In this document: one piece after another, positions 15,680 to 40,033 of the stretch | Layout of the letters: every line of letters begins with the position of its first letter | Position numbering within the stretch: position 1 is the stretch's first letter | Virus record (IMG/VR): IMGVR_UViG_3300010266_000003 | Span: 1 to 40,271 of that record | Strand: one strand, 5' to 3' | Origin: a virus | Length of the DNA: 40,271 nucleotides | Made by a program: the position numbers and the translations under genes | The notes under the pieces: generated by a model | Seen by the model: only the letters and a program-made list of their open reading frames with translations | Told to the model about the DNA's origin: nothing | Databases searched by the model: none

Positions 15680-16053
15680 CTCCGCAGTCTGCGATACCCG
15701 TTCAGGGCCTCCCGCCAGCCGAAGAAGGCGCCGCCCTCCGCAAGGTCAAAGGTCCCCGCCGTGGCGGACGCCCCTCCGCTCACGGCAAAGGAGGTGGACA
15801 CGTCCCCCCGTTTCACGGAGGCCACCGGCCCCGCGGCAGTCTCTTCGCCGCCCAGCGCCGCCCCCTTCCAGTAGGCGGCCGTCATCAGCACCAGGGGACG
15901 CTCCAGCCCTTCTGGAAGGGTATCCCAGTGGATGTAGCCGAGCACGCGATCCTCCACCGTCCGGAGGGCAAACTCCAGCAGCGTGTCCTTTTCCGTCCCG
16001 GAGAGCCCCAGCAGCGCCTTCAGCAGGGCAAGCCGTTCATTCAGGCGGTCCAT
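15676..16053 (-). CDS. gp6-like head-tail connector (DNA-packaging) protein
   Basis: 125 aa, immediately downstream of the capsid gene. Sequence includes DTLLEFALRTVEDRVLGYIHW. Confidence 0.55.
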   Translation of the reverse strand: MDRLNERLALLKALLGLSGTEKDTLLEFALRTVEDRVLGYIHWDTLPEGLERPLVLMTAAYWKGAALGGEETAAGPVASVKRGDVSTSFAVSGGASATAGTFDLAEGGAFFGWREALNGYRRLRR

Positions 16054-16054
16054 C

Positions 16055-17152
16055 TCAGCCTACCAGCTTCACCGCCATGGTCTCGTCCAGGGTCTTGACG
16101 CCGTAGATGATGTCCAGAGAGACCGTGTCCTTCTTGGTGTCCTGGTTATAGCCGTACACCACCCGGACGCCCAGGCCGTCGTGGCTCATGATCGCGGCGT
16201 TGGCCGCGCCCATGGGCAGGGCCAGGGGGCGGGTGACCAGGGCGATGGCGTTGCGGTGGAAGGCCAGGGAGTGGGGCTTGGAGGCCAAATAGGCGTCGGC
16301 GTTGGTGTAATCCTTCACCAGCTCTGCGTCGATGCCCACCTCAGCCACTGCACTGGAGGCGGCGGTGGCGTCGGCGGTGAAGTGGTAGCGGTAGCCGTCC
16401 AGGATGAAGCAGTCGCCCTTCTTCACGGTGGCCGTGGCGGCGGTGACGCTGGAGAGCGCCACCTTGGTCTCCCCCTTCGTGCCGCTCACCTTGAAGGCGG
16501 TGGCGTTGCCCGCAGTGGCCGCCAGGGAGTCGGGGCAGTTCTGGTCCATGTACGTGTCCAGCGTGTACACCCGGCCCAGCTCGGCGTTGCGCAGGGTCTC
16601 GCCGTTACCCGCGTAGGCCACCTTCGAGAGATTGTCGGTGAGGGCGTAGCGGTACTTATGGGTGGGGTTGAGCACCAGCCTGCGCATATCCAGGGGGACC
16701 TTGGCGATGTCCAGGGTCTTGGACAGATTGGCGATGTCCGCCAGATTGGTGGGGGACGCGGTCGCGGTCACGGACGCGCTGATGTTGGCGCATTCGTTGA
16801 GGATGTCCTCGTCCACCGCCTGGGCGATGGCCCGCATGGCGGGGGCGATGAGCTGGGTGGAAAAGTCCTTGATGTCCAGGGTCATCTCCTTGCTGGTCAC
16901 CTCAAAGGACACGTCCCGGTGCCGGTCGATCTTCACGGCCACGCTCCCCTCGGAGGCGTCCTGCCGGATGATGGAGCCGGTAAAGTTCTTGGCTGTAAAC
17001 TTGGCGGGCTTGCGGATGGTCACGGTGTCGCCCACCTGTACGAACTCGTCGGAGTAGTCCCGGTGGACCAGGTTGGCGGCGATCAGGTTGTTCTCCAGGA
17101 CGATCAGGGACTCCCGGGCGATGACGGAGGGAGTCAAAAATGTGTTTGCCAT
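16055..17152 (-). CDS. Major capsid protein (P22-coat-like family)
   Basis: 365 aa with RBS AAAGGAGA. The N-terminus is MANTFLTPSVIARESLIVLENNLIAANLVHRDYSDEFVQVGDTVTIRKP, typical of the P22 coat family. Confidence 0.85.
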   Translation of the reverse strand: MANTFLTPSVIARESLIVLENNLIAANLVHRDYSDEFVQVGDTVTIRKPAKFTAKNFTGSIIRQDASEGSVAVKIDRHRDVSFEVTSKEMTLDIKDFSTQLIAPAMRAIAQAVDEDILNECANISASVTATASPTNLADIANLSKTLDIAKVPLDMRRLVLNPTHKYRYALTDNLSKVAYAGNGETLRNAELGRVYTLDTYMDQNCPDSLAATAGNATAFKVSGTKGETKVALSSVTAATATVKKGDCFILDGYRYHFTADATAASSAVAEVGIDAELVKDYTNADAYLASKPHSLAFHRNAIALVTRPLALPMGAANAAIMSHDGLGVRVVYGYNQDTKKDTVSLDIIYGVKTLDETMAVKLVG

Positions 17153-17338
17153 GTTGTACTATCTCCTTTTCTGTTTGATGTTGTCTCCTGCATGCATGAA
17201 ACTGTCACGCTGCGGGCTGAGCGCATGGCCGGTCGAATAAGCACGGACTCCGCGAAAAATGCCGTTTGGCCTCCGGCCCAACCTGTTTTTTCGTCTGCGT
17301 CCTGACTTGTTCTCCCTATGCGCCTGCCCTCCGCGCTT

Positions 17339-17989
17339 CTAATTTCTCGGGAAGCCGGTTTGCTTTTCACGGTAGGCCGCGTACTCCTCCATGGAGAGCT
17401 TCCCGAGTTCCTCCATGGTGTAGTCCTTGGGGGGTTCTCCCCCCGTGGGCGGCGCGGGCTGTGCCCCCTTCAGGGGTGGCTGTGCCGGATCTTGGCTCGG
17501 CTTGAACAGATAGGGCTTGGCCTCCTGGATGGGCTTGAGCAGGTCCTCCAGATCGGTTTTTAGTCCGCCGTCCTCGCCGATCTGGATCTTCTCCAGGTCC
17601 AGCAGCCCCAACACGTCGGCGGGGTCGTGGACTCGCCCGGTCAGGGCCATGCGCACCGCGGTGTCCTTCTGGATGCGGGCAAGCTCCTTCCTGTGGTCGG
17701 TTTTCAGGGTCTCAATGGTCCCCTTTGCCGCGGCCACGTCCTCCGCCAGCTTGGCGGGGTCCCCGGAGCCGCCCAGGGCCTTCACGGCCTCCGCGGCGGA
17801 TTTCAGCGCAGTCTCGGCGGAGGCGGCCCGGCGCTTCTCGCCGTCGTACTTGTCCGCCGGCACATAGCTCCCGTCGTTCCCCACCACCAGGTCCAGGTCC
17901 TTGCCGTCCTTGCCCTTGCCCTTCAGTGCGGTCTCTACCTGTGCGGACAGCTCTTCCCCAAGGATGGTCTTGACGCTCTCGATGATCAT
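17339..17989 (-). CDS. Scaffolding protein (GP20-like)
   Basis: The start was set at ATG 17989 after GAGAGGAG. Translation is MIIESVKTILGEELSAQVETALKGKGKDGKDL.... The protein is helical and charged and lies upstream of the capsid gene. Confidence 0.7.
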   Translation of the reverse strand: MIIESVKTILGEELSAQVETALKGKGKDGKDLDLVVGNDGSYVPADKYDGEKRRAASAETALKSAAEAVKALGGSGDPAKLAEDVAAAKGTIETLKTDHRKELARIQKDTAVRMALTGRVHDPADVLGLLDLEKIQIGEDGGLKTDLEDLLKPIQEAKPYLFKPSQDPAQPPLKGAQPAPPTGGEPPKDYTMEELGKLSMEEYAAYREKQTGFPRN

Positions 17990-18104
17990 GTGTGTCTCCT
18001 CTCTGGCTGTTTCTATAGCGACTTCCACGCTCTTTGCCGCCCCTGTTGGTCTGGGACAGGGAGCCCAAAATGGTATGAAAAAAGCACCCTCTCAGGTGCT
18101 TTCA

Positions 18105-18302
18105 TCAACAATTGTCCAGGCTGACCGCCGCATAGCAGCAGCGCCCGTTTCTCCAGGCCGCACACCCCTCTTGGGGGCACTCCATCATGGTGTAGGTCCA
18201 CGATGTGATCTGCTGGGTACTGTCGCACTGCCCTTCGTCGCCGTACTCATTCGTGACTTGCAGCACCTGTTTTTCCTGCTTGCGGTTATACGGGCAGATC
18301 AT
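18105..18302 (-). CDS. Small Cys-rich hypothetical protein
   Basis: 65 aa with RBS AAAGGAGG and 7 Cys residues (MICPYN...QCDST...ECPQEGCAAWRNGRCCYAAVSLDNC). Confidence 0.65.
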   Translation of the reverse strand: MICPYNRKQEKQVLQVTNEYGDEGQCDSTQQITSWTYTMMECPQEGCAAWRNGRCCYAAVSLDNC

Positions 18303-18330
18303 AGGCCCCGCCTCCTTTCAGGCATAAGAA

Positions 18331-18356
18331 AACCACCGCCCCGGAGAGTGGTGGTT
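18331..18356 (-). terminator. Intrinsic-terminator-like hairpin inside the head module
   Basis: The minus strand reads AACCACCAC-TCTCCGGG-GCGGTGGTT followed by TTCTTAT. It lies directly after the stop of the 69-aa acidic ORF. Confidence 0.45.
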
Positions 18357-18565
18357 CAGTCGTTGGATTCAAAGATTTCGTCGTAGAGTTTCTGGAGTTT
18401 GATCCCATCCTCTGACAGGTAATTTTGGCTGTCATCTAATTCGTCAATGATCAGATCATCTATTGCCAGCAAGAGCGCTTCGTCCGTTGGCTCGGCAAGC
18501 AGTTCATCCAGACGCGGGATCAACGGAGCAAGCTCCAATCGCTGCTTCTCGGTTATTTTTATCAC
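18356..18565 (-). CDS. Small acidic protein, candidate immunity partner of the MuF C-terminal domain
   Basis: 69 aa. The GTG start overlaps the MuF stop (GTGA) and follows RBS AAGGAG. The protein is very acidic (LLAEPTDEALLLAIDDLIIDELDDSQNYLSEDG) and the DNA is low GC. Confidence 0.6.
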   Translation of the reverse strand: MIKITEKQRLELAPLIPRLDELLAEPTDEALLLAIDDLIIDELDDSQNYLSEDGIKLQKLYDEIFESND

Positions 18566-20115
18566 TGCTCCATCTCCTTTCTGCTGTGTCGCGGATTGGC
18601 TTGAATGATCGTCCCGGTATCAGGATTCACTGTTACAATGGCTTCCTTTCCGAAATACCGGACGCTCACTCCCTTTTTCCCTCGCCTGGAATCCCTTCTC
18701 TCCGGGTTTGTCAGCGCTTCCCTCACGCTGGAGATTTCCACGCCAGACCTTCTCTCCTCGACGGACCCGATTACTCTGCTTACGAAATGATCTGATTTGG
18801 CGACAATTTCTGTTCCATCAGAAGTTATGACCCCAACCAACTCCGCATCAATCTGAGCCGCTGTATCTTGGTACAGCTTAAAATCGGCAAGCGGGGTCAA
18901 GCCCCCATTCCCGATATCTCTGGCATACGCTTTAAACTGCGCATAGTCATCTCCACTGCTGTATTTTATATTCTGGAACGCTTCAAATGTGGCCGGCGCA
19001 TTTTCCCCAAGCTTCTCCTTCAATCGCTGGTATTGTTCTTTATCCGAAGCTATATTATACACCCTTTTGCGCTCACGTTCAACATATCCTTCGCCATGCT
19101 CTGCCACCTGCCGCTGATACCACTCCTCATAGGTCATACGCTCCGGCATTTTCTCTCCGGCGGCGGCCCAATCCGCCTGCTCCTCCGGGTCCCACTCCAC
19201 CGTGGTGCACCGGTCGTTTGGGTGCATGGGCGGGTAGTTCACGCCGGTCTGCGCCTCGGCCACCTTGAAGCGCTTGCCGTCCAGCGCCCCGCAGACGGCG
19301 CAGGTGCGGCTGTCCAGCGTGGCCATGAACTCATACCACTCGATGCCCGCCGCCTGGTAGGCGGCGCGGTCCGCCTCGTTGTGGAAGTGATTGAGCTCGG
19401 TGCGCACCAGCCGTTCCGCTGCCTTGTAGCTCTGGCCCATCTGCTCCGAGAGCGACTTGGATAGGGGGCCGATTCCCGTCCCCTTGATGAGCCCCTGGGT
19501 GAGGTCCTGCCGGAGGCTGAAAAGCAGGGCCGTCTTGTTTTGCCATAGCCGGTCGGAGAAGTTCGCCCCGCTCCACGGGTAGGACATCACGTGCTCTACC
19601 ATGCCCACGTCGATTCCGGCCACCTCCCAGATGCGCCCCGCCCTCTGCTGGATGTCGAAGGACTTTTTGTAATAGCTCTCTCGGTACGCCTCGCCGAACT
19701 CTTCCGACATCTCCCGCATGCACCTGGCGCACAGCTCGTCCAGCGTCATCTCCATCTGGCCGCACATCGCCTCCAGCCGGTCCATCCGGCTCCGGTAAGA
19801 GAGCGCGTCCAGCTCGGCCTTCAGCCGGGCCTTGATCTCCTGGTCTGTCTCAGCGTTGATCCGCTCCACCCACTCCCCCAGCGAGGCCTTCCACTCTCTG
19901 GCCTCCGCCCGGTTCAGGGCTTTTACGGCCTCGGCGTAGGTCAGCCGGTTCTCTCTGGCGTAGCGCACGTAAAAGTCGTTGATCTGCCGGCGCAGGTCCC
20001 GCAGGGCCGTCTGGTAGGCGTCGTACAGCCTGGCGGACAGCTCCGCCCCTCTGGCGTAGGCCTCCGCCTCCCGCTGGAGGGCCCGGGCCGCCCAGTAGTC
20101 CTTATTCGCCGCCAT
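18562..20115 (-). CDS. Head morphogenesis protein, SPP1 gp7 / Mu F family, with about 170-aa C-terminal extension
   Basis: 517 aa. The MuF core is LNHFHNEADRAAYQAAGIEWYEFMATLDSRTCAVCGALDGKRF...YPPMHPNDRCTT. The extra C-terminal domain contains SDHFVSRVIGSVEERRSGVEISSVREALTNPE...VRYFGKEAIVTVNPDTGTIIQANP. Confidence 0.8.
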   Translation of the reverse strand: MAANKDYWAARALQREAEAYARGAELSARLYDAYQTALRDLRRQINDFYVRYARENRLTYAEAVKALNRAEAREWKASLGEWVERINAETDQEIKARLKAELDALSYRSRMDRLEAMCGQMEMTLDELCARCMREMSEEFGEAYRESYYKKSFDIQQRAGRIWEVAGIDVGMVEHVMSYPWSGANFSDRLWQNKTALLFSLRQDLTQGLIKGTGIGPLSKSLSEQMGQSYKAAERLVRTELNHFHNEADRAAYQAAGIEWYEFMATLDSRTCAVCGALDGKRFKVAEAQTGVNYPPMHPNDRCTTVEWDPEEQADWAAAGEKMPERMTYEEWYQRQVAEHGEGYVERERKRVYNIASDKEQYQRLKEKLGENAPATFEAFQNIKYSSGDDYAQFKAYARDIGNGGLTPLADFKLYQDTAAQIDAELVGVITSDGTEIVAKSDHFVSRVIGSVEERRSGVEISSVREALTNPERRDSRRGKKGVSVRYFGKEAIVTVNPDTGTIIQANPRHSRKEMEQ

Positions 20116-21544
20116 TCAACCCGCCCCCGCCGCCGTGGTCGTCGAACAGCCCCGCGCCGTAGCGCTCCAGCTCCTGTCGCTTTTCGGCCTCCACGGCCTC
20201 CAGCTCCCCGTCCACATCCTTGACCCAGGGATGGTTTTCCAGCAGGGTCCGCCGGGACAGTAGTCCGGCGCTTGCGTTTACGTTGGCGATGATATCGGTC
20301 TCGTTCACCGGCAGGTCCATATTGAAGGCGATGGAGAATGTACTGTCTGAAAAGTCCCCCGCGCCCGTGGCCTGGAGCCAGGTGTCCAGGAAAGGCTTGA
20401 GCCGCCGGAATGTGTCCTGGAGTTCGTCGGCTAGGTCGGCGCAGTCGGCGTCCAGATCCATGTACCGGAAGCCGATGGCCGAGCCGGAGGCGTTGCCCAG
20501 CTCCGGGTCCTTGGTGTCCACGGCGGAGGCGAAGTCGAAGAGGTCTCGCCGCTCCGCGTCCAGGAAGCTCATCACCGCCGATACGTCCAGGTCGGCCTGG
20601 AGCTTGTCCACGCCGCCGTCGCCCTCCACCTTCACGGCCAGGGCCTCCCGCAGATCCCGCACAAACTCGTCCAGATCGGCCCCGCCGTAGTTTTTCAGAA
20701 TGTAGACGAACTTGGCTACATCCCGCAGCACGTCGGCGGTAACGGAGGTCTGCCAGTTGTAGTCATCGATGAGATCCCGAACATAGTGGCACAGGGACAG
20801 CTCCTCCTCGTTATAGCGCAGCCACACCAGAGGAGGCCGTTCCCAGTTGTAACCCTTGCCCCCCAGGGTGAAGTGGGGCTCAGTCCATCCCCCCGCCTCC
20901 GTGCCGTGTCCGGTGTCTACCCGATACTCCCCCGAGCCGTCGGTGCATAGAAACCACAGCACGCCGCCGGAGAACCAATATTCCGCCCGGTGGATCACCC
21001 GCTTGTCCCGGCCCACGTAGACCACCTGGGGGTAAAAACGGATAAAGCCGTCCAGCTCGCTCCGCTCCGTGTCCTTCCACAGCGGGACCAGCTCCCGGGC
21101 GGGGATGCGCAGAAAGCACAGCTCCCCGGCCTCGCCGATGTAGGGTTGGAGCCAGGCCACGCCGCACTTGACCGCGCCCCGCCCCAGAGATTTAACCTTG
21201 CGCCGGAAGGTCGCGTCGAACAACGTCTCCAGCGCCTCCCCGTATGCCTTGTCCTCCGTCTCCACCGCCCAGGGGCGGGCCAGGAGGTAGCGCACCTTCT
21301 GGTCCACCAGCTTCCGGTAAATGGGATGCTCGATCCTGGCATTGGAGCGCTCCTTGATGTCGTTGGTCTTGCGCTGCACATCGGAGCGGTTGCGGTAATA
21401 AGCGTCGGCCTCCAGCAGCTCCCGATACTGCGGTGAGCGCAGGAACTCCCGGATCTCCTCGCTCACGATCTGGGCAAGGGTCATGGGCGCGTTTGCCGGG
21501 TCGGAGAGGGCCGCACTCACCATCTCGGTCTGTGTATAGGTCAT
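20102..21544 (-). CDS. Portal protein (SPP1 gp6-like)
   Basis: 480 aa with RBS GAGGTGAG. It lies between the terL and MuF genes. Confidence 0.85.
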   Translation of the reverse strand: MTYTQTEMVSAALSDPANAPMTLAQIVSEEIREFLRSPQYRELLEADAYYRNRSDVQRKTNDIKERSNARIEHPIYRKLVDQKVRYLLARPWAVETEDKAYGEALETLFDATFRRKVKSLGRGAVKCGVAWLQPYIGEAGELCFLRIPARELVPLWKDTERSELDGFIRFYPQVVYVGRDKRVIHRAEYWFSGGVLWFLCTDGSGEYRVDTGHGTEAGGWTEPHFTLGGKGYNWERPPLVWLRYNEEELSLCHYVRDLIDDYNWQTSVTADVLRDVAKFVYILKNYGGADLDEFVRDLREALAVKVEGDGGVDKLQADLDVSAVMSFLDAERRDLFDFASAVDTKDPELGNASGSAIGFRYMDLDADCADLADELQDTFRRLKPFLDTWLQATGAGDFSDSTFSIAFNMDLPVNETDIIANVNASAGLLSRRTLLENHPWVKDVDGELEAVEAEKRQELERYGAGLFDDHGGGGGLNGGE

Positions 21545-21548
21545 ATTC

Positions 21549-22811
21549 TCACCTCAAAATCTTCAGCGCCGGGCCGGTCATATCGTCCTCACAGGCGTAG
21601 CGCACGGCGTCGATGTGGTGGTTGTCGTGGTCGGGGAACCCCGCCTTGAAGTTGCCGTCTCCGTCCCGATCCAGCTCGTAGCCGGTGAACTCCTTCGCCG
21701 TCTCGGGGCAGCGGGCGGGGTCGATGACGATCTCCTCCAGGTCCTGGAGCCATTTGACCCCATACTCCACCGAGTCGGGTCCTTTCCGCGCGCCCACCAC
21801 CCGCAGGCCGTAGTCCCGGACCTCGGCGATACTTTTGGGCTCGGCGGAATCGCAGACAATCCGCCCGTTGCTCCCCGCCCATGGGAGGATGCGCCTGGCC
21901 GCCTCCCGGTTGGATAGGCGTACCTGATGGATCTCCCGGAAGAGATAGAGCCGCCGCCTCGTCTTGTCGTAATGTCCCTCGTTGTAGGCAAGCGGGTCGG
22001 TGGCGTAGCCCCAGTCCAGCCCCCGGCGGATGTGGTCGAACCGCCCGATCTCCTCGTCCGGGATCGCCCGCAGCGTCACATTGTCAAAAACCTCTCCGCC
22101 GGTGCCCGTCACCTCTCCCAGGTACTCGTGGGCATAGGCCATCGGTTTAACCTCCCGCAGGTGCTCGGCCTCCAGCAGGAATTGTTCCCCCAGCCAGGCC
22201 CGGGGCACCGTGCGGTAGTCCGTCCGGTGTACCAGCGTGTCCGGGTGGGGTGCTCCCACGTACTGGTTACACCAGCTCCGGGCGCTGCGGGGCGGGTTGA
22301 AGGTGTAGAAAAAGGCGAAGTCCGCTCCACCCCGCATCAGTGACTGGTTGATGCTGCGCAGCTTCTCCTCACCCTCGAACTCGTTGACCTCTTCGTACCA
22401 GCCGTATTTGATATATCCGCTGTCCACCTTGATGGATTTGACCTTCATCGGGTCGTCGGCCCCCCGGAACAGGATGCGCTGCCCGGTGGGCGCATAGGTG
22501 AGCGCCATGGGCGACACGCCGGTCGTCCAATAGTCCGCCGCCCCCAGGGCGTTGATGCCCCACAGGAGCTGGGCGTAGACCGACTCCCGCAGGGTCACGC
22601 CATAGCGCCGCAGGGCCACGGCGTGACTCATCACGCCTTTTTGGGCGTCCCGCATGAGGCCCATGGGGATTTCTATCCCCACGAAGGAGGACTTGCAGGA
22701 ACCCCGCCCGCCGGGCAGCCAGTAGTGGGTGTGCCTCCCTGCCGCCACATCACGGTGGACGCAGTGGAAGGCCGGTGCGATCAGCTCCGAAACCTTAGTC
22801 ATCGATATCAT
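21549..22811 (-). CDS. terL: Terminase large subunit (PBSX/terminase_3 type)
   Basis: 420 aa. P-loop-like WLPGGRGSCKSS, and a C-terminal nuclease block GFPDHDNHHIDAVRYA. The start could instead be ATG 22802. Confidence 0.9.
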   Translation of the reverse strand: MISMTKVSELIAPAFHCVHRDVAAGRHTHYWLPGGRGSCKSSFVGIEIPMGLMRDAQKGVMSHAVALRRYGVTLRESVYAQLLWGINALGAADYWTTGVSPMALTYAPTGQRILFRGADDPMKVKSIKVDSGYIKYGWYEEVNEFEGEEKLRSINQSLMRGGADFAFFYTFNPPRSARSWCNQYVGAPHPDTLVHRTDYRTVPRAWLGEQFLLEAEHLREVKPMAYAHEYLGEVTGTGGEVFDNVTLRAIPDEEIGRFDHIRRGLDWGYATDPLAYNEGHYDKTRRRLYLFREIHQVRLSNREAARRILPWAGSNGRIVCDSAEPKSIAEVRDYGLRVVGARKGPDSVEYGVKWLQDLEEIVIDPARCPETAKEFTGYELDRDGDGNFKAGFPDHDNHHIDAVRYACEDDMTGPALKILR

Positions 22812-23211
22812 CCACGATCTGTACCGGCATCCCGCCGGATACGCTGGCTTCCGTCTTGGTGGTATAACCGTACCGTGACATCCAGAGCCCCGCCAACTGC
22901 GTAGGGATCACCCCGAGCTCCAGCTTCTCACGGGTGTCCACCTCGCACTCCTCGCGCATGCGCGTAACCGTGTCAGCATATCTCTCATTTTCGGCGTAAT
23001 GCTCATAGAAAGCTGCCCGCGAAATTCCGGAGAATGCGCAAAAGCCCTCTATCGTGTATGTGACGCTGCGCTTTAATTCCGCACTGACGAACTCACTGTT
23101 TTTCGAGCTGAAATCGTGGGTCAGAACATACCGCTCATTGCAGTCCTTTTTGTATCCGCTCCAAGCTTCTTCAAGCTCTTTTGCGCTCTTAAATTTTCTT
23201 TTCCGCCCCAC
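22795..23211 (-). CDS. terS: Terminase small subunit
   Basis: The start was trimmed to GTG 23211 after GGAGGAGG. Translation is (M)GRKRKFKSAKELEEAWSGYKKDCNE.... It overlaps the terL start. Confidence 0.65.
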   Translation of the reverse strand: MGRKRKFKSAKELEEAWSGYKKDCNERYVLTHDFSSKNSEFVSAELKRSVTYTIEGFCAFSGISRAAFYEHYAENERYADTVTRMREECEVDTREKLELGVIPTQLAGLWMSRYGYTTKTEASVSGGMPVQIVDDIDD

Positions 23212-37056: not shown

Positions 37057-38352
37057 ATGGGTATCGGCGACATTTTTAAAGCGAGTGAAAATCAGCAATT
37101 GCGGCAACGAATCTCCGAACTCGAGTCCCTTATAACCCCCGAGATGAAGGACATAAGTACTGCACGTCAGCGCCTTGATGCGCTCCAGCAGGAAATATCT
37201 CTCCAAGAAGTTAAAGCGTTAGGCTTAGAAGCTGACCTAAGCCGAATACAGTCGGAAATTGACCTTGCTAAGAAGAATTTGATTGAAACAAATGACGCCG
37301 TTCTTCTTCAAGAGTTTGGTCTGTATGAGCCGGTTTATGCCTTCGCTACCTCTGACCTATACAAAACCCGACTGCTTGAAATAAGATCAGCGCAAAAAGA
37401 AATGATAAAGAATAAACAGGCTGCTACGGGTTTTACCAATTGGACGGTAAACAACAATGCCGCCAAAGGGCGAAAAATGGTCTCTGATATGCAAAAGCTA
37501 CTGATTCGCGCTTTTAATAGTGAATGCGATGAGGTGATTGGTAATATCAAATTCAACAATATAGAGTCTGGTATAAAAAGAATTACCACCTCGCGAGATG
37601 CTATTTCAAAGCTCGGCGACATAATGGGCGTTAGCATTACGCCAAAATATTATAAATCCAAGCTTGACGAGCTTCACCTTGCATATGAATATCAGGTAAA
37701 AAAGCAAGAGGAAAAAGAAGAGCAGCGACGTATACGCGAGGAGTTGAGAGAACAGGCAAAACTCCAAAAGGAACTTGAAGAAGCCCGTAAGAAAATTGTA
37801 AAAGACCGTCAGCATTATGAAAATGCTCTTAAACAAGCCAGAGAACGGTTAGACACAGAACTCAACGAGGCAACCAAAGCAGATCTACTTGAGAAGATAG
37901 AGGCGTTTGAGAGACAGCTCGAAAAGCTTGATAAGGACCTAAAGGATGTGGACTATAGGGAAGCAAACCAAAAAGCTGGGTACGTGTACATCATATCTAA
38001 CATCGGAGCCTTTGGAAATGATATTTTTAAAATTGGGATGACAAGACGATTGGACCCAATGGACAGGATAGACGAACTTGGCGACGCTTCTGTGCCATTT
38101 AAATTCGATGTGCATGCAATGATTTTTACTGAGGATGCCCCCAAATTGGAATCGGCGCTCCATCACGCTTTTGAATCTAGAAAAGTTAATATGGTAAACA
38201 ATAGACGCGAATTTTTCAGGGTATCTCTTGACGAAATAAAGAAGGTCATTCAAGAAAACTTTGATAAATCTGTTGAGTTTGTCGATTCACCATACGCGGA
38301 GCAGTATAGGCAGTCTCTTTTAATCCAGAAACAGCTCTCAAAATCGGGATAA
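37057..38352 (+). CDS. Coiled-coil + DUF4041-like + T5orf172 (GIY-YIG superfamily) nuclease-like protein
   Basis: 431 aa with RBS GAGGGGAG. Central block: FGLYEPVYAFATSDLYKTRLLEIRSAQKEMIKNKQA...LLIRAFNSECD. C-terminal block: GYVYIISNIGAFGNDIFKIGMTRRLDPMDRIDELGDASVPFKFDVHAMIF...NRREFF. Sampled lines are about 35-40% GC. Confidence 0.8.
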   Translation: MGIGDIFKASENQQLRQRISELESLITPEMKDISTARQRLDALQQEISLQEVKALGLEADLSRIQSEIDLAKKNLIETNDAVLLQEFGLYEPVYAFATSDLYKTRLLEIRSAQKEMIKNKQAATGFTNWTVNNNAAKGRKMVSDMQKLLIRAFNSECDEVIGNIKFNNIESGIKRITTSRDAISKLGDIMGVSITPKYYKSKLDELHLAYEYQVKKQEEKEEQRRIREELREQAKLQKELEEARKKIVKDRQHYENALKQARERLDTELNEATKADLLEKIEAFERQLEKLDKDLKDVDYREANQKAGYVYIISNIGAFGNDIFKIGMTRRLDPMDRIDELGDASVPFKFDVHAMIFTEDAPKLESALHHAFESRKVNMVNNRREFFRVSLDEIKKVIQENFDKSVEFVDSPYAEQYRQSLLIQKQLSKSG

Positions 38353-38357
38353 AAAAT

Positions 38358-38390
38358 GCCTCCCACGGTACTCGCAATACCGTGGGAGGC
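38358..38390. terminator. Perfect 13-bp hairpin after the nuclease-like gene
   Basis: GCCTCCCACGGTA-ctcgcaa-TACCGTGGGAGGC. An A-tract lies upstream on the plus strand, so the U-tract falls on the minus-strand transcript. Confidence 0.5.
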
Positions 38391-38455
38391 GGGAAGGTGT
38401 AGACCACAGAGCGGCGGCTACCCTTCTATTTTATCGGAATAGGAGGATTTTGTCA

Positions 38456-40033
38456 ATGCGCAGGGCTGCAATATATGCACGGTACTCAAGCGACCTCCAA
38501 CGCAGCGAATCCATCGATGCGCAAATTCGAGCGTGTAAATATTATGCGCAGCGCTTTGATCTGGAGGTCGTGCGTATCTATGCTGATGCCGCCAAATCCG
38601 GCAAGAGCACAAAAAAGCGTGAAGATTTCCTAGATATGATGGAGGATGCCGCTCGGGATATCTTTGACGTACTGTTGGTACACAAACTTAGCCGATTCTC
38701 GCGCCGAGGCACCGATACCCTGAACAACAAGGAGAGGCTGGACTCGTTAGGCGTGGAGCTTATCTCTGTCACGGAGCGTCTTGACGACACTCCAGAAGGT
38801 CGCCTTATGCTCTATGTCATTACTGGCATGAATGAGTTCTACTCTGCGAACCTCGCCGCCGAAACTATGAAAGGGCTCCGCGAAAACGCGTATAACGGGA
38901 AGCACACCGGCGGTCTCCCCCCTCTGGGGTACGATGTTGACCCGGTTACGAAGAAACTAACAATCAATCCGTCCGAGGCGGAAGCTGTGCGCATGATATT
39001 CTCCATGTACCTGTCTGGTTGTGGATACGGTGAGATTGTAGACACACTAAATGCGCATGGATACCTCACCAAACGAGGTGCGCCATTTGGGCGGAACTCG
39101 ATCCATGATATTTTGGTCAACGAAAAGTATACCGGCTTGCTGACCTATGACAAAATCGCCTCAAAAACTCCGGATGGGAGAATGAACCGGCGCAAGTTCA
39201 AGGCTGAATACTTAAAAATCGAGGATGGATGCCCGCAAATTATTACCAAAGAGGACTTCGAAAGGGTGAAGGAAACAATGGCGCAGAATAAGCGTGCCCC
39301 GAAGACTACGGCGGTTGAGAATTATCTGCTTTCTGGGAAACTTTTCTGCGGAGAATGCGGTGCCAGGATGTGCGGAGAGCGTCATAAGGTCCGGGACACT
39401 GCATACTCCTATTACATCTGTAACGAGGGAAAGCGCTGTAAAACTCATCGCCTGTCCGTCCGAAAAGAGATCGTAGAGAATATGGTCTTTGATGCACTCA
39501 ACAGGATGGTGCTCTCAGAAGCGTCGGTGGATGCCATAGCTCATGCAGCCGTTGGAAGCTATGAGACCCAGAAGCACGCCGCTGACACCCTGGAAGCTGA
39601 GATTGCAGAATGCGAAGTCAAAATAGCGAACCTGGTAAAAGCCATTGCTACTGGCCTTGATGAACCAGAGTTACGGGAAGAAATGGCGCGGTTGAAGCAG
39701 CGCAAGGCAGAATGTCATGCCATGATGGAAACCCTTCGGGATAATGCGGATCAGCGCAAAAGTGTGGCGGAGTGGAAGGCCTATTTGCGACGCTTCTGTG
39801 ATATAAACGCCTTGCCCGATGAGGATAAGAAAGCGTTGATCGCTGTTTTTGTAGATCGGATTCTTCTGTTTCCAGATGGCGGCCCAGGCCCAAAGGGCAC
39901 ATATAGAATTGAGGTGGAGCTCAACCCCAATCATGTTGAGCCTAGGGAAGGCAACGGCCTCCCGCTGCCAGAAAACCCACAAATAACAGTATTTAAAAAC
40001 GGTTTTGTGGTATTGAATGGCAGAGGCAATTAG
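38456..40033 (+). CDS. Large serine recombinase (integrase)
   Basis: ATG 38456 follows GGAGGA. The resolvase-type N-terminus is MRRAAIYARYSSDLQ...VLLVHKLSRFSRR. It also has a recombinase domain, the zinc-ribbon-like motif CGECGARMCGERH...YYICNEGKRC, and a C-terminal coiled coil. Confidence 0.9.
   Translation: MRRAAIYARYSSDLQRSESIDAQIRACKYYAQRFDLEVVRIYADAAKSGKSTKKREDFLDMMEDAARDIFDVLLVHKLSRFSRRGTDTLNNKERLDSLGVELISVTERLDDTPEGRLMLYVITGMNEFYSANLAAETMKGLRENAYNGKHTGGLPPLGYDVDPVTKKLTINPSEAEAVRMIFSMYLSGCGYGEIVDTLNAHGYLTKRGAPFGRNSIHDILVNEKYTGLLTYDKIASKTPDGRMNRRKFKAEYLKIEDGCPQIITKEDFERVKETMAQNKRAPKTTAVENYLLSGKLFCGECGARMCGERHKVRDTAYSYYICNEGKRCKTHRLSVRKEIVENMVFDALNRMVLSEASVDAIAHAAVGSYETQKHAADTLEAEIAECEVKIANLVKAIATGLDEPELREEMARLKQRKAECHAMMETLRDNADQRKSVAEWKAYLRRFCDINALPDEDKKALIAVFVDRILLFPDGGPGPKGTYRIEVELNPNHVEPREGNGLPLPENPQITVFKNGFVVLNGRGN

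Follow-up and report, generated by a model that had tools for sequence, protein, structure and literature searches.

A predicted toxin-immunity-type cassette at the exchangeable 3' end of a phage MuF gene

The C-terminal tail of a MuF protein and the small gene that follows it were analyzed in a 40,271-nt viral DNA (IMG/VR record IMGVR_UViG_3300010266_000003, positions 1 to 40,271; this whole stretch is called the window below). MuF is an SPP1 gp7-type minor head protein, here of 517 amino acids (aa), and its gene is followed by an open reading frame (ORF) for an acidic protein of 69 aa. The tail and the ORF are best read as a toxin-immunity-type cassette that was grafted horizontally onto the 3' end of the MuF gene of a phage taken to be temperate, and we put the probability of this at roughly 0.7. 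The more specific assignment, with the tail as an RNase toxin and the 69-aa protein as its inhibitor, is also rated as probable. All genes of the MuF locus are on the minus strand, and the features concerned were the following.

18562-20115, minus strand: gene of MuF, the SPP1 gp7-type minor head protein, 517 aa (ORF; PF04233, TIGR01641, phrog_115)
19120-20115, minus strand: MuF core, residues 1 to ~332, conserved and of high GC (96% DNA identity to the relative L050)
18319-19119, minus strand: exchangeable cassette of pre-toxin linker, tail, 69-aa ORF and hairpin (no homology to L050)
18904-19119, minus strand: pre-toxin linker, residues ~333-404, with the motif (D/E)QY..L...LG.NAP..F..F..IKY common to relatives
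18565-18903, minus strand: C-terminal tail domain, residues 405-517, with a connecting helix and a predicted BECR-like core at ~426-512 (profile family, AlphaFold2 models)
18356-18565, minus strand: 69-aa acidic ORF, predicted cognate inhibitor or immunity protein (ORF, GTGA overlap, pairing with the tail)
18330-18357, minus strand: hairpin closing the cassette, a weak terminator-like element (folding energy)
19054-19082, minus strand: sigma-70-like promoter match TTGAAC-17-TATAAT inside the cassette, speculative (10/12 hexamer matches)

Cassette boundaries and base composition

Known families covered the N-terminal part of MuF: Phage_Mu_F (PF04233) matched residues 201-305 (E = 7.2e-19, 69 bits against a cut-off of 29.6), TIGR01641 residues 202-306 (E = 8e-28, 97 bits against a cut-off of 39.65), and phrog_115, "minor head protein", residues 4-426 (E = 6e-106). 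The Pfam domain ends at residue 305 of 517, and the ORF therefore extends about 210 residues beyond it. An earlier reading of the window, made by a model from the letters and ORF translations (the sequence-only reading), had rightly seen the ORF continue past the core, and its estimate of about 170 further residues was too low.

The closest relative in IMG/VR, found with MuF residues 1-340 as query, was L050 (IMGVR_UViG_3300010270_000026; related loci are given by such numbers), the MuF core of which is 92% identical. At the DNA level the two were 96% identical from 22000 down to 19120, had no homology from 19119 to 18319, the sole such stretch between 16000 and 22000, and were again 88-96% identical from 18318 onward. 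The non-homologous block takes in MuF residues ~333-517, followed by the 69-aa ORF and the hairpin, and no more. The junction was placed at residue ~332/333, after MTYEEW, because DNA homology to L050 ends there. At this junction L050 carries an unrelated tail of the Pfam family CdiA_C (E = 1.5e-16) and has no 69-aa ORF, which bears out the suggestion of a swappable cassette in the sequence-only reading; the ORF was likewise absent from L048-L055. Between the MuF stop of L050 and its MICPYNRK ORF (L050 5548-5681) there was no ORF of at least 40 aa, and the immunity gene of its CdiA_C-type tail is either elsewhere or absent.

Guanine-cytosine (GC) content changed at the same place. The MuF core (residues 1-337) had a GC of 0.658 and a GC at third codon positions (GC3) of 0.905, and the scaffold gene 0.643 and 0.835, respectively. 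The corresponding values were 0.458, the lowest in the region, and 0.448 in the linker (residues 338-404), 0.519 and 0.566 in the tail (residues 405-517), and 0.471 and 0.571 in the 69-aa ORF. The dip was sharp: GC3 fell to 0.45-0.57 in the cassette, and the portal, MuF-core, scaffold and capsid genes on either side had values of 0.84-0.92. The low GC of the tail and the next gene (0.458-0.519 against 0.658 in the core) had been noticed before and held. The cassette, 18319-19119, is almost certainly exchangeable and foreign in composition.

The hairpin at 18330-18357 (-16.6 kcal/mol, z = -2.3) begins within the stop codon of the 69-aa ORF and falls within the block that is non-homologous to L050. 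It had been called terminator-like: the hairpin itself was found again, its U-tract (UUUUCUU) is weak, and a terminator scan flagged neither it nor a second hairpin at 18066-18106. Both were folded directly, since the scan reported neither.

Content of the junction in related MuF genes

More distant MuF cores had other content after the same MTYEEW(Y)Q junction.

L048/L051, core identity 60-61%: DUF6883 (E = 5e-16) and a DUF4926-like 51-aa ORF after the junction
L049, core identity 51%: ADPrib_exo_Tox, an ADP-ribosyltransferase (E = 1e-24), and a 134-aa ORF
L052, core identity 37%: unannotated tail and an 80-aa acidic ORF
L053, core identity 33%: short MuF of 351 aa, no tail, no small ORF at the stop

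The C-terminal extension thus varies while the N-terminal part is conserved, both between the window and L050 and again in L048/L051, L049, L052 and L053. The comparison of related MuF genes that had been proposed earlier gave a conserved core, with the tail and the downstream ORF varying together. The tail is not an integral part of MuF in all relatives: some have other tails and L053 has none. With another tail on the core in L050 and no tail in L053, the tail is therefore dispensable for the assembly role of MuF. No Pfam family matched the tails of L001, L008 or L052, or the small ORFs beside them. Relatives were annotated as Clostridiales/Oscillospiraceae.

A linker motif, (D/E)QY..Y...LG.(N/D)AP..F..F...KY, stands before four or more unrelated types of tail, among them those of L008, L048/L051 (DUF6883) and L052. 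The linker matched no Pfam family. The breakpoint between L008 and L009 lies within the motif, after DQEQY, and the shared motif may be a recombination handle, by analogy with VENN in CdiA.

An orphan module was observed in L049 (6144-7333; Oscillospiraceae metagenome-assembled genome CAYWVF010000018.1), downstream of the MuF-ADP-ribosyltransferase gene and the 134-aa ORF. Its parts are a MuF domain reduced to the C-terminal half, to which a second ADP-ribosyltransferase-like tail is fused, and an overlapping 145-aa ORF. This tandem orphan array resembles contact-dependent inhibition (CDI) and Rhs loci, but is within a phage head module.

The acidic partner ORF

The GTG start codon of the 69-aa ORF and the MuF stop share a GTGA overlap, by which the two genes are translationally coupled, and AAGGAG lies 7 nt upstream. 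The sequence-only reading had described the overlap correctly, as well as the strong acidity of the product (isoelectric point (pI) 4.05, net charge -13.5). Partners were surveyed in 35 IMG/VR loci with the tail (30-61% tail identity), 34 of which had readable downstream DNA. In every one of these (34/34), an acidic ORF of 65-95 aa (pI 4.1-4.9) started -26 to +13 bp from the MuF stop, so the proposed coupling of the tail to a small acidic ORF held throughout the survey; about half of the loci had a 4-nt start/stop overlap. The closer partner ORFs matched the hidden Markov model of the 69-aa family (E down to 4.5e-29), and the most distant ones (E about 0.2; no match in L047) were assigned by position, size and acidity. 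The same pairing was seen in L007, L009, L010 and L012, and in the representative P0079 the tail and the ORF are fused in frame.

Pairwise identities of tail and ORF were correlated (Spearman rho = 0.57, Mantel p = 0.0005), also when the core was controlled for (partial rho = 0.60), and the correlation between tail and MuF core was weak (rho = 0.17). Tail and ORF therefore travel and change together, without regard to the carrier. The 69-aa family had no relatives in Pfam, NCBIfam, PHROG or among PDB sequences; the PDB sequence searches with the tail and with the 69-aa ORF gave chance matches only, such as an antibody light chain.

The sigma-70-like match TTGAAC-17-TATAAT may be a chance match in AT-rich DNA; 3.5 kb contained two such sites, where shuffled sequences had 0.7 +/- 0.9. 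As the first in-frame Met of the tail is M515, ribosomes on a transcript arising at 19054-19082 would meet the 69-aa ORF as their first reading frame.

Displacement, orphans and remnants

In CDI and Rhs loci, an incoming toxin/immunity cassette displaces the old toxin end and orphans the old immunity gene. A comparable situation was found in phages related to the window. L009 and L010 carry the tail (69% identical) and the ORF P0013. L008 is of the same phage lineage, with a MuF that is the same up to ...DQEQY and an identical P0013; it differs from L009 and L010 in having another tail and two new Cys-rich small ORFs. Directly before P0013, L008 retains 16 codons (LIQVNPRHSQGGNARG) from the old tail's 3' end as a stub. 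In L001-type phages a third tail is followed by a 57-aa ORF, a degenerate stub and then a 69-aa homologue. By analogy, the stubs and retained ORFs of L008 and L001 are a displacement pattern like that of CDI and Rhs loci.

The two small ORFs behind the replacement tail of L008 (5010-5394; 61 and 63 aa) are of the CxxC type and had no Pfam match, and a remnant in L002/L003 has a 76-aa zinc-ribbon-like ORF in the place of the CxxC-type ORFs. These Cys-rich and zinc-ribbon-like products are possible alternative immunity or partner proteins.

Decayed remnants with a truncated tail and an acidic ORF were found in L007, L012 and L056-L059. In L056-L058 (4001-4553; Hominimerdicola) and L059 (4001-4663; Romboutsia maritimum), N-terminally truncated tails with an intact His/Arg motif stand beside an acidic ORF in bacterial chromosomes, with no other phage genes nearby. 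One truncated tail fragment was present on at least 59 contigs. The L056 fragment is near possible tRNA genes, an assignment made by eye from the translation alone.

Spread and conservation of the tail family

The exhaustive profile search, over clusters at 50% identity, gave 1046 representatives of the tail family at E <= 1e-3 and 449 at E <= 1e-10. An apparent rarity of the tail (5 clusters) was an artefact of a word-indexed homologue search and was rejected on this result. The locus search was run with alignment A1, as alignment A3 was too diverse. In the 148 representatives checked of the best 150, the domain ended a median of 2 residues from the C-terminus of the protein. Among 66 full-length proteins (the window MuF and 65 carriers), PF04233 was found in 44, PF06152 in 14 and LPD3 in one; the module thus rides on two different MuF families.

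The H-x-x-x-R motif pointed out in the sequence-only reading corresponds to H443 and R447, each 99% conserved in 137 representatives, as are R456, N497 and Q505. In the same set, G450 was 100%, S484 95%, T500 92% and N507 96% conserved. The conserved set of the tail can be written as K440-x-x-H443, R447, R456, S484, N497, T500, Q505 and N507. The last 92 residues of MuF have a pI of 9.7.

No profile assigned the tail to DUF4258, which had been suggested before: its profile gave no match at E <= 10 for the tail, nor at E <= 5 for 38 relatives. Sub-threshold Pfam matches among 38 tails were Colicin_D (1.6e-3) and PBECR3 (0.022), each in 1 of the 38, and REGB_T4 (T4 RegB; 0.098).

Predicted fold of the tail

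An AlphaFold2 model from a shallow alignment had a predicted local distance difference test score (pLDDT) of 81.8, and one of residues 426-517 from a 109-sequence alignment had a pLDDT of 88.5 and a predicted template modeling score of 0.78. The model runs from a short N-terminal beta-hairpin through a helix that starts at H443 and a second helix to a four-stranded antiparallel sheet (helices 442-449 and 461-469; strands 473-479, 482-488, 492-497 and 502-508), and H443 stands at the start of helix 1 within K440-S-x-H443. Colicin-like BECR RNases have a "pre-alpha + alpha + beta1-4" layout, with extra strands in PBECRs, and in colicin D and PBECR3 the catalytic His is preceded by a lysine (bioRxiv 10.64898/2026.08.28.747851). 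The layout of the tail model is "pre-alpha + alpha + beta1-4".

In a Foldseek search of the PDB with the tail model, the top 18 matches were all BECR RNase toxins, including HigB and RelE from three organisms, and colicin E5 was at rank 27. The best match was CdiA-CT NC101 (E = 0.028, probability 0.97, 73 columns, 23% identity), chain A of the complex structure, which is the toxin, a BECR tRNase (PMC5737660). In BFVD, the significant matches were unannotated phage proteins. Next came a "cytotoxic translational repressor" of the RelE type (E = 0.015), and the only link to DUF4258 was a match to a protein of that family (E = 0.063). The BECR likeness noticed in the sequence-only reading was accordingly recovered in the tail model, below formal significance, and the DUF4258 part of it was not, with no Pfam match. 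On the models, a BECR-type fold of the tail is likely; membership of DUF4258 or another named BECR family is not supported by any profile match.

Proposed mechanism

Residues ~333-404 would be a pre-toxin linker shared between otherwise unrelated tails, and residues ~426-512 a basic domain of the BECR type (colicin-like/RelE-like) with predicted metal-independent endoribonuclease activity. H443 is the candidate catalytic histidine; the near-invariant polar residues besides it are R447, R456, N497 and Q505. The 69-aa protein would bind and block the tail in the producing cell, as barstar, colicin immunity proteins and CdiI do with their partners. PMC5512222 counts SPP1 gp7 and Mu gpF among the components of the head. 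By analogy, the tail-bearing MuF may enter the capsid through the MuF-portal interaction, and the MuF-tail fusion may be released with the DNA into the next cell. The targets could be competitors, superinfecting phages (or their host), or the phage's own new host, where the tail would serve host take-over; different roles are proposed in passages of Jamet et al. (PMC5576092) and Iyer et al. (PMC5512222).

In a variant that we consider doubtful, the acidic protein would do more than protect the cell that is producing virions: it would be expressed alone in lysogens and shield the cell from RNase tails injected by related superinfecting phages. MuF tails and orphan immunity genes would then make up a virion-delivered, kin-discriminating form of warfare, of phage against phage or phage against host. 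Expression in the lysogen would possibly be from the promoter-like site at 19054-19082, selection would keep the acidic ORF in decayed remnants and after displacement of the tail, and the "QY..LG.NAP..F..KY" linker would be a recombination handle like VENN in CdiA.

Alternative explanations

The RNase toxin-inhibitor reading was weighed against three others. The first, unlikely though the strongest of the three, makes the tail a non-toxic, catalytically silent RNA-/DNA-binding or portal-docking domain for head assembly, as has been proposed for the PBECR of Mu gpF, with the 69-aa protein as a chaperone or nucleic-acid mimic that would leave it unoccupied up to packaging. Several observations speak for it or weigh against a toxin. 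None of the 66 full-length proteins was a carrier typical of secreted polymorphic toxins; the recognized carriers are all MuF, and the tail could therefore have a MuF-specific, non-toxic role. The tail had no match at threshold in Pfam, including its toxin families, in NCBIfam, in PHROG or among PDB sequences (single sequences and profiles), and Foldseek found nothing in the PDB below E = 1e-3, with TM-scores of 0.44-0.50. BECR RNases classically carry S/T in strand 4. In the tail model, strand 4 holds Q505 and N507, and the conserved alcohols are S484 in strand 2, S/T495 in strand 3 and T500 in a turn; the catalytic Arg200 and His248 of CdiA-CT NC101 (PMC5737660) are also placed differently from H443. 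According to a passage of Iyer et al. (PMC5512222), Mu gpF carries an inactive PBECR, so a BECR fold is no guarantee of activity. Tight linkage is equally expected for a domain and its chaperone, and strict pairing and co-divergence suit any obligate two-protein module. On the other hand, a 92%-identical core occurs with a CdiA_C tail and without the 69-aa ORF, L053 is tailless, and the alternatives at the same junction are recognized toxins. Unlike the degenerate domain of Mu, the tail has H443, R447 and R456 conserved at 99%, and a chaperone role leaves the retention of the ORF after tail loss unexplained.

Slightly less probable still is a type II toxin-antitoxin module for prophage addiction or abortive infection, with a RelE-like toxin and a labile acidic antitoxin in place of a delivered effector. 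RelE and HigB dominate the full-length fold matches, and pairs of truncated tail and ORF persist in chromosomes outside intact prophages (L056-L059). A type II RelE-family module consists of a stand-alone toxin gene and an upstream gene for a DNA-binding antitoxin. Here, in contrast, the toxin part is fused to MuF, a virion protein encoded in the late operon, and those copies that stand alone are fragments truncated at the N-terminus; the partner is encoded downstream, not upstream, and has no recognizable DNA-binding domain, and the locus undergoes displacement in the style of polymorphic toxins.

The third explanation, that the 69-aa ORF is an ordinary conserved head-module gene between MuF and scaffold and unrelated to a partnerless tail, could draw on its presence (65-69% identical) behind MuF genes with other tails and their own overlapping small ORFs in L001, L004-L006 and L008, but it was rejected as very improbable on the old-tail 3' stubs immediately before the ORF at those loci (L008, L001), the absence of the ORF from L050 and L048-L055, its position after the tail in 34/34 loci across 30-61% tail identity, and its co-divergence with the tail and not with the core.

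Neighboring genes

The MuF gene is part of a head module in which the portal gene overlaps the MuF start, with the terminase upstream and the scaffold and capsid genes downstream. The other features recorded in the window were as follows.

21549-22811, minus strand: large terminase (Pfam)
20102-21544, minus strand: SPP1-type portal, SPP1_portal (Pfam)
18105-18302, minus strand: 65-aa Cys-rich ORF (ORF call)
17339-18028, minus strand: scaffold gene (Pfam)
16055-17152, minus strand: probable major capsid gene, assigned by position with no family test (ORF call)
37057-38352, plus strand: DUF4041 + T5orf172 (GIY-YIG-like) protein, adjoining the serine recombinase at the right end of the window
38450-40033, plus strand: large serine recombinase

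The 65-aa Cys-rich ORF (MICPYNRKQ...) has a strong ribosome-binding site, lies between the cassette and the scaffold gene and had no Pfam match. It is conserved outside the swapped block, with 88% DNA identity in L050, where it is shortened to 49 aa, and a homologue is present in L001 from 6264 on. On its 3' side are the hairpin at 18066-18106 (-16.1 kcal/mol, z = -4.7), which has a U-run, and then a conserved TTTTTTCATACC.

The phage was considered temperate from the serine recombinase at 38450-40033 in the same window, on the assumption that it belongs to the same element. Positions 37057-40033 probably mark the end of the prophage that serves lysogeny and integration, and the DUF4041 + T5orf172 gene is possibly of a defense type. 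Megablast of window positions 16000-23000 against GenBank phages gave no match, and a tRNA scan of the window found no tRNA genes.

Comparison with known systems

MuF toxins are defined by bioinformatics. The polymorphic MuF toxins of temperate phages have a small ORF directly after the toxin gene (Jamet et al. 2017, PMC5576092; Zhang et al. 2012, PMC3482391). The window shares with them the N-terminal MuF after a portal gene, the variable C-terminal extension, the downstream ORF of less than 150 aa, the temperate phage, and relatives with recognized toxin tails at the same junction. It differs in that the tail matches no Pfam toxin domain and the partner ORF no described immunity family. The survey of Jamet et al. 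recognized a toxin domain in only 34% of C-terminal extensions (PMC5576092), so about two thirds of MuF extensions were without a known domain; the tail is not a recognized toxin domain, so the locus falls into the class of an extension with unknown domain in that survey. By every architectural criterion tested except a recognized toxin domain, the locus is a MuF polymorphic toxin.

Among described systems, MuF-DUF6883 (BECR-Tox3) with its DUF4926 partner (bioRxiv 10.64898/2026.08.28.747851) comes closest, a BECR-type domain C-terminal to Phage_Mu_F with a conserved small downstream ORF. It occurs behind the same linker motif in the 60%-identical relatives L048/L051. In contrast to it, the window tail has no DUF6883 match and the 69-aa partner no detectable similarity to DUF4926, which here best matched an SH3-type family (MSSS).

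The MuF-PBECR fusions of phage polyvalent proteins have the His in an N-terminal helix, according to the PBECR section of Iyer et al. 2017 (PMC5512222). As far as that section goes, the shared traits are a BECR fused to MuF, extra strands before the His helix and one member with LPD3. A sub-threshold PBECR3 match was obtained in only 1/38 tails (E = 0.022), and the section mentions no immunity partner, whereas the window family had one in every locus examined.

The best structural matches to the tail, CdiA-CT(NC101) with CdiI (PDB 5I4Q/5I4R; PMC5737660) and colicin D/E5, are small basic BECR RNases at the C-terminus of a large delivery protein, neutralized by an adjacent protein encoded downstream. 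Compared with CdiA-CT(NC101), the catalytic His would be in a different element, and the domain is attached to a phage head protein instead of a scaffold of the type V secretion or colicin kind. Orphan modules of CDI and Rhs loci show the same displacement, in which the old immunity gene and a 3' toxin stub are left behind (L008, L001; a full module in L049), but here it takes place within a phage late structural operon.

Significance

The new elements are a toxin-like domain family, a partner family and a clear cassette displacement inside a phage head operon; this is no new kind of system. One uncharacterized MuF extension has become a large family of about 1000 clusters at 50% identity, for which an RNase fold is predicted and candidate catalytic residues are named, and a strictly linked, previously unannotated family of acidic partners has been identified beside it. 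The boundaries of the cassette are defined at the base-pair level, and footprints of orphan immunity are seen within a phage structural operon. The candidate toxin/inhibitor pair makes the toxicity, packaging/injection and targets of MuF toxins testable.

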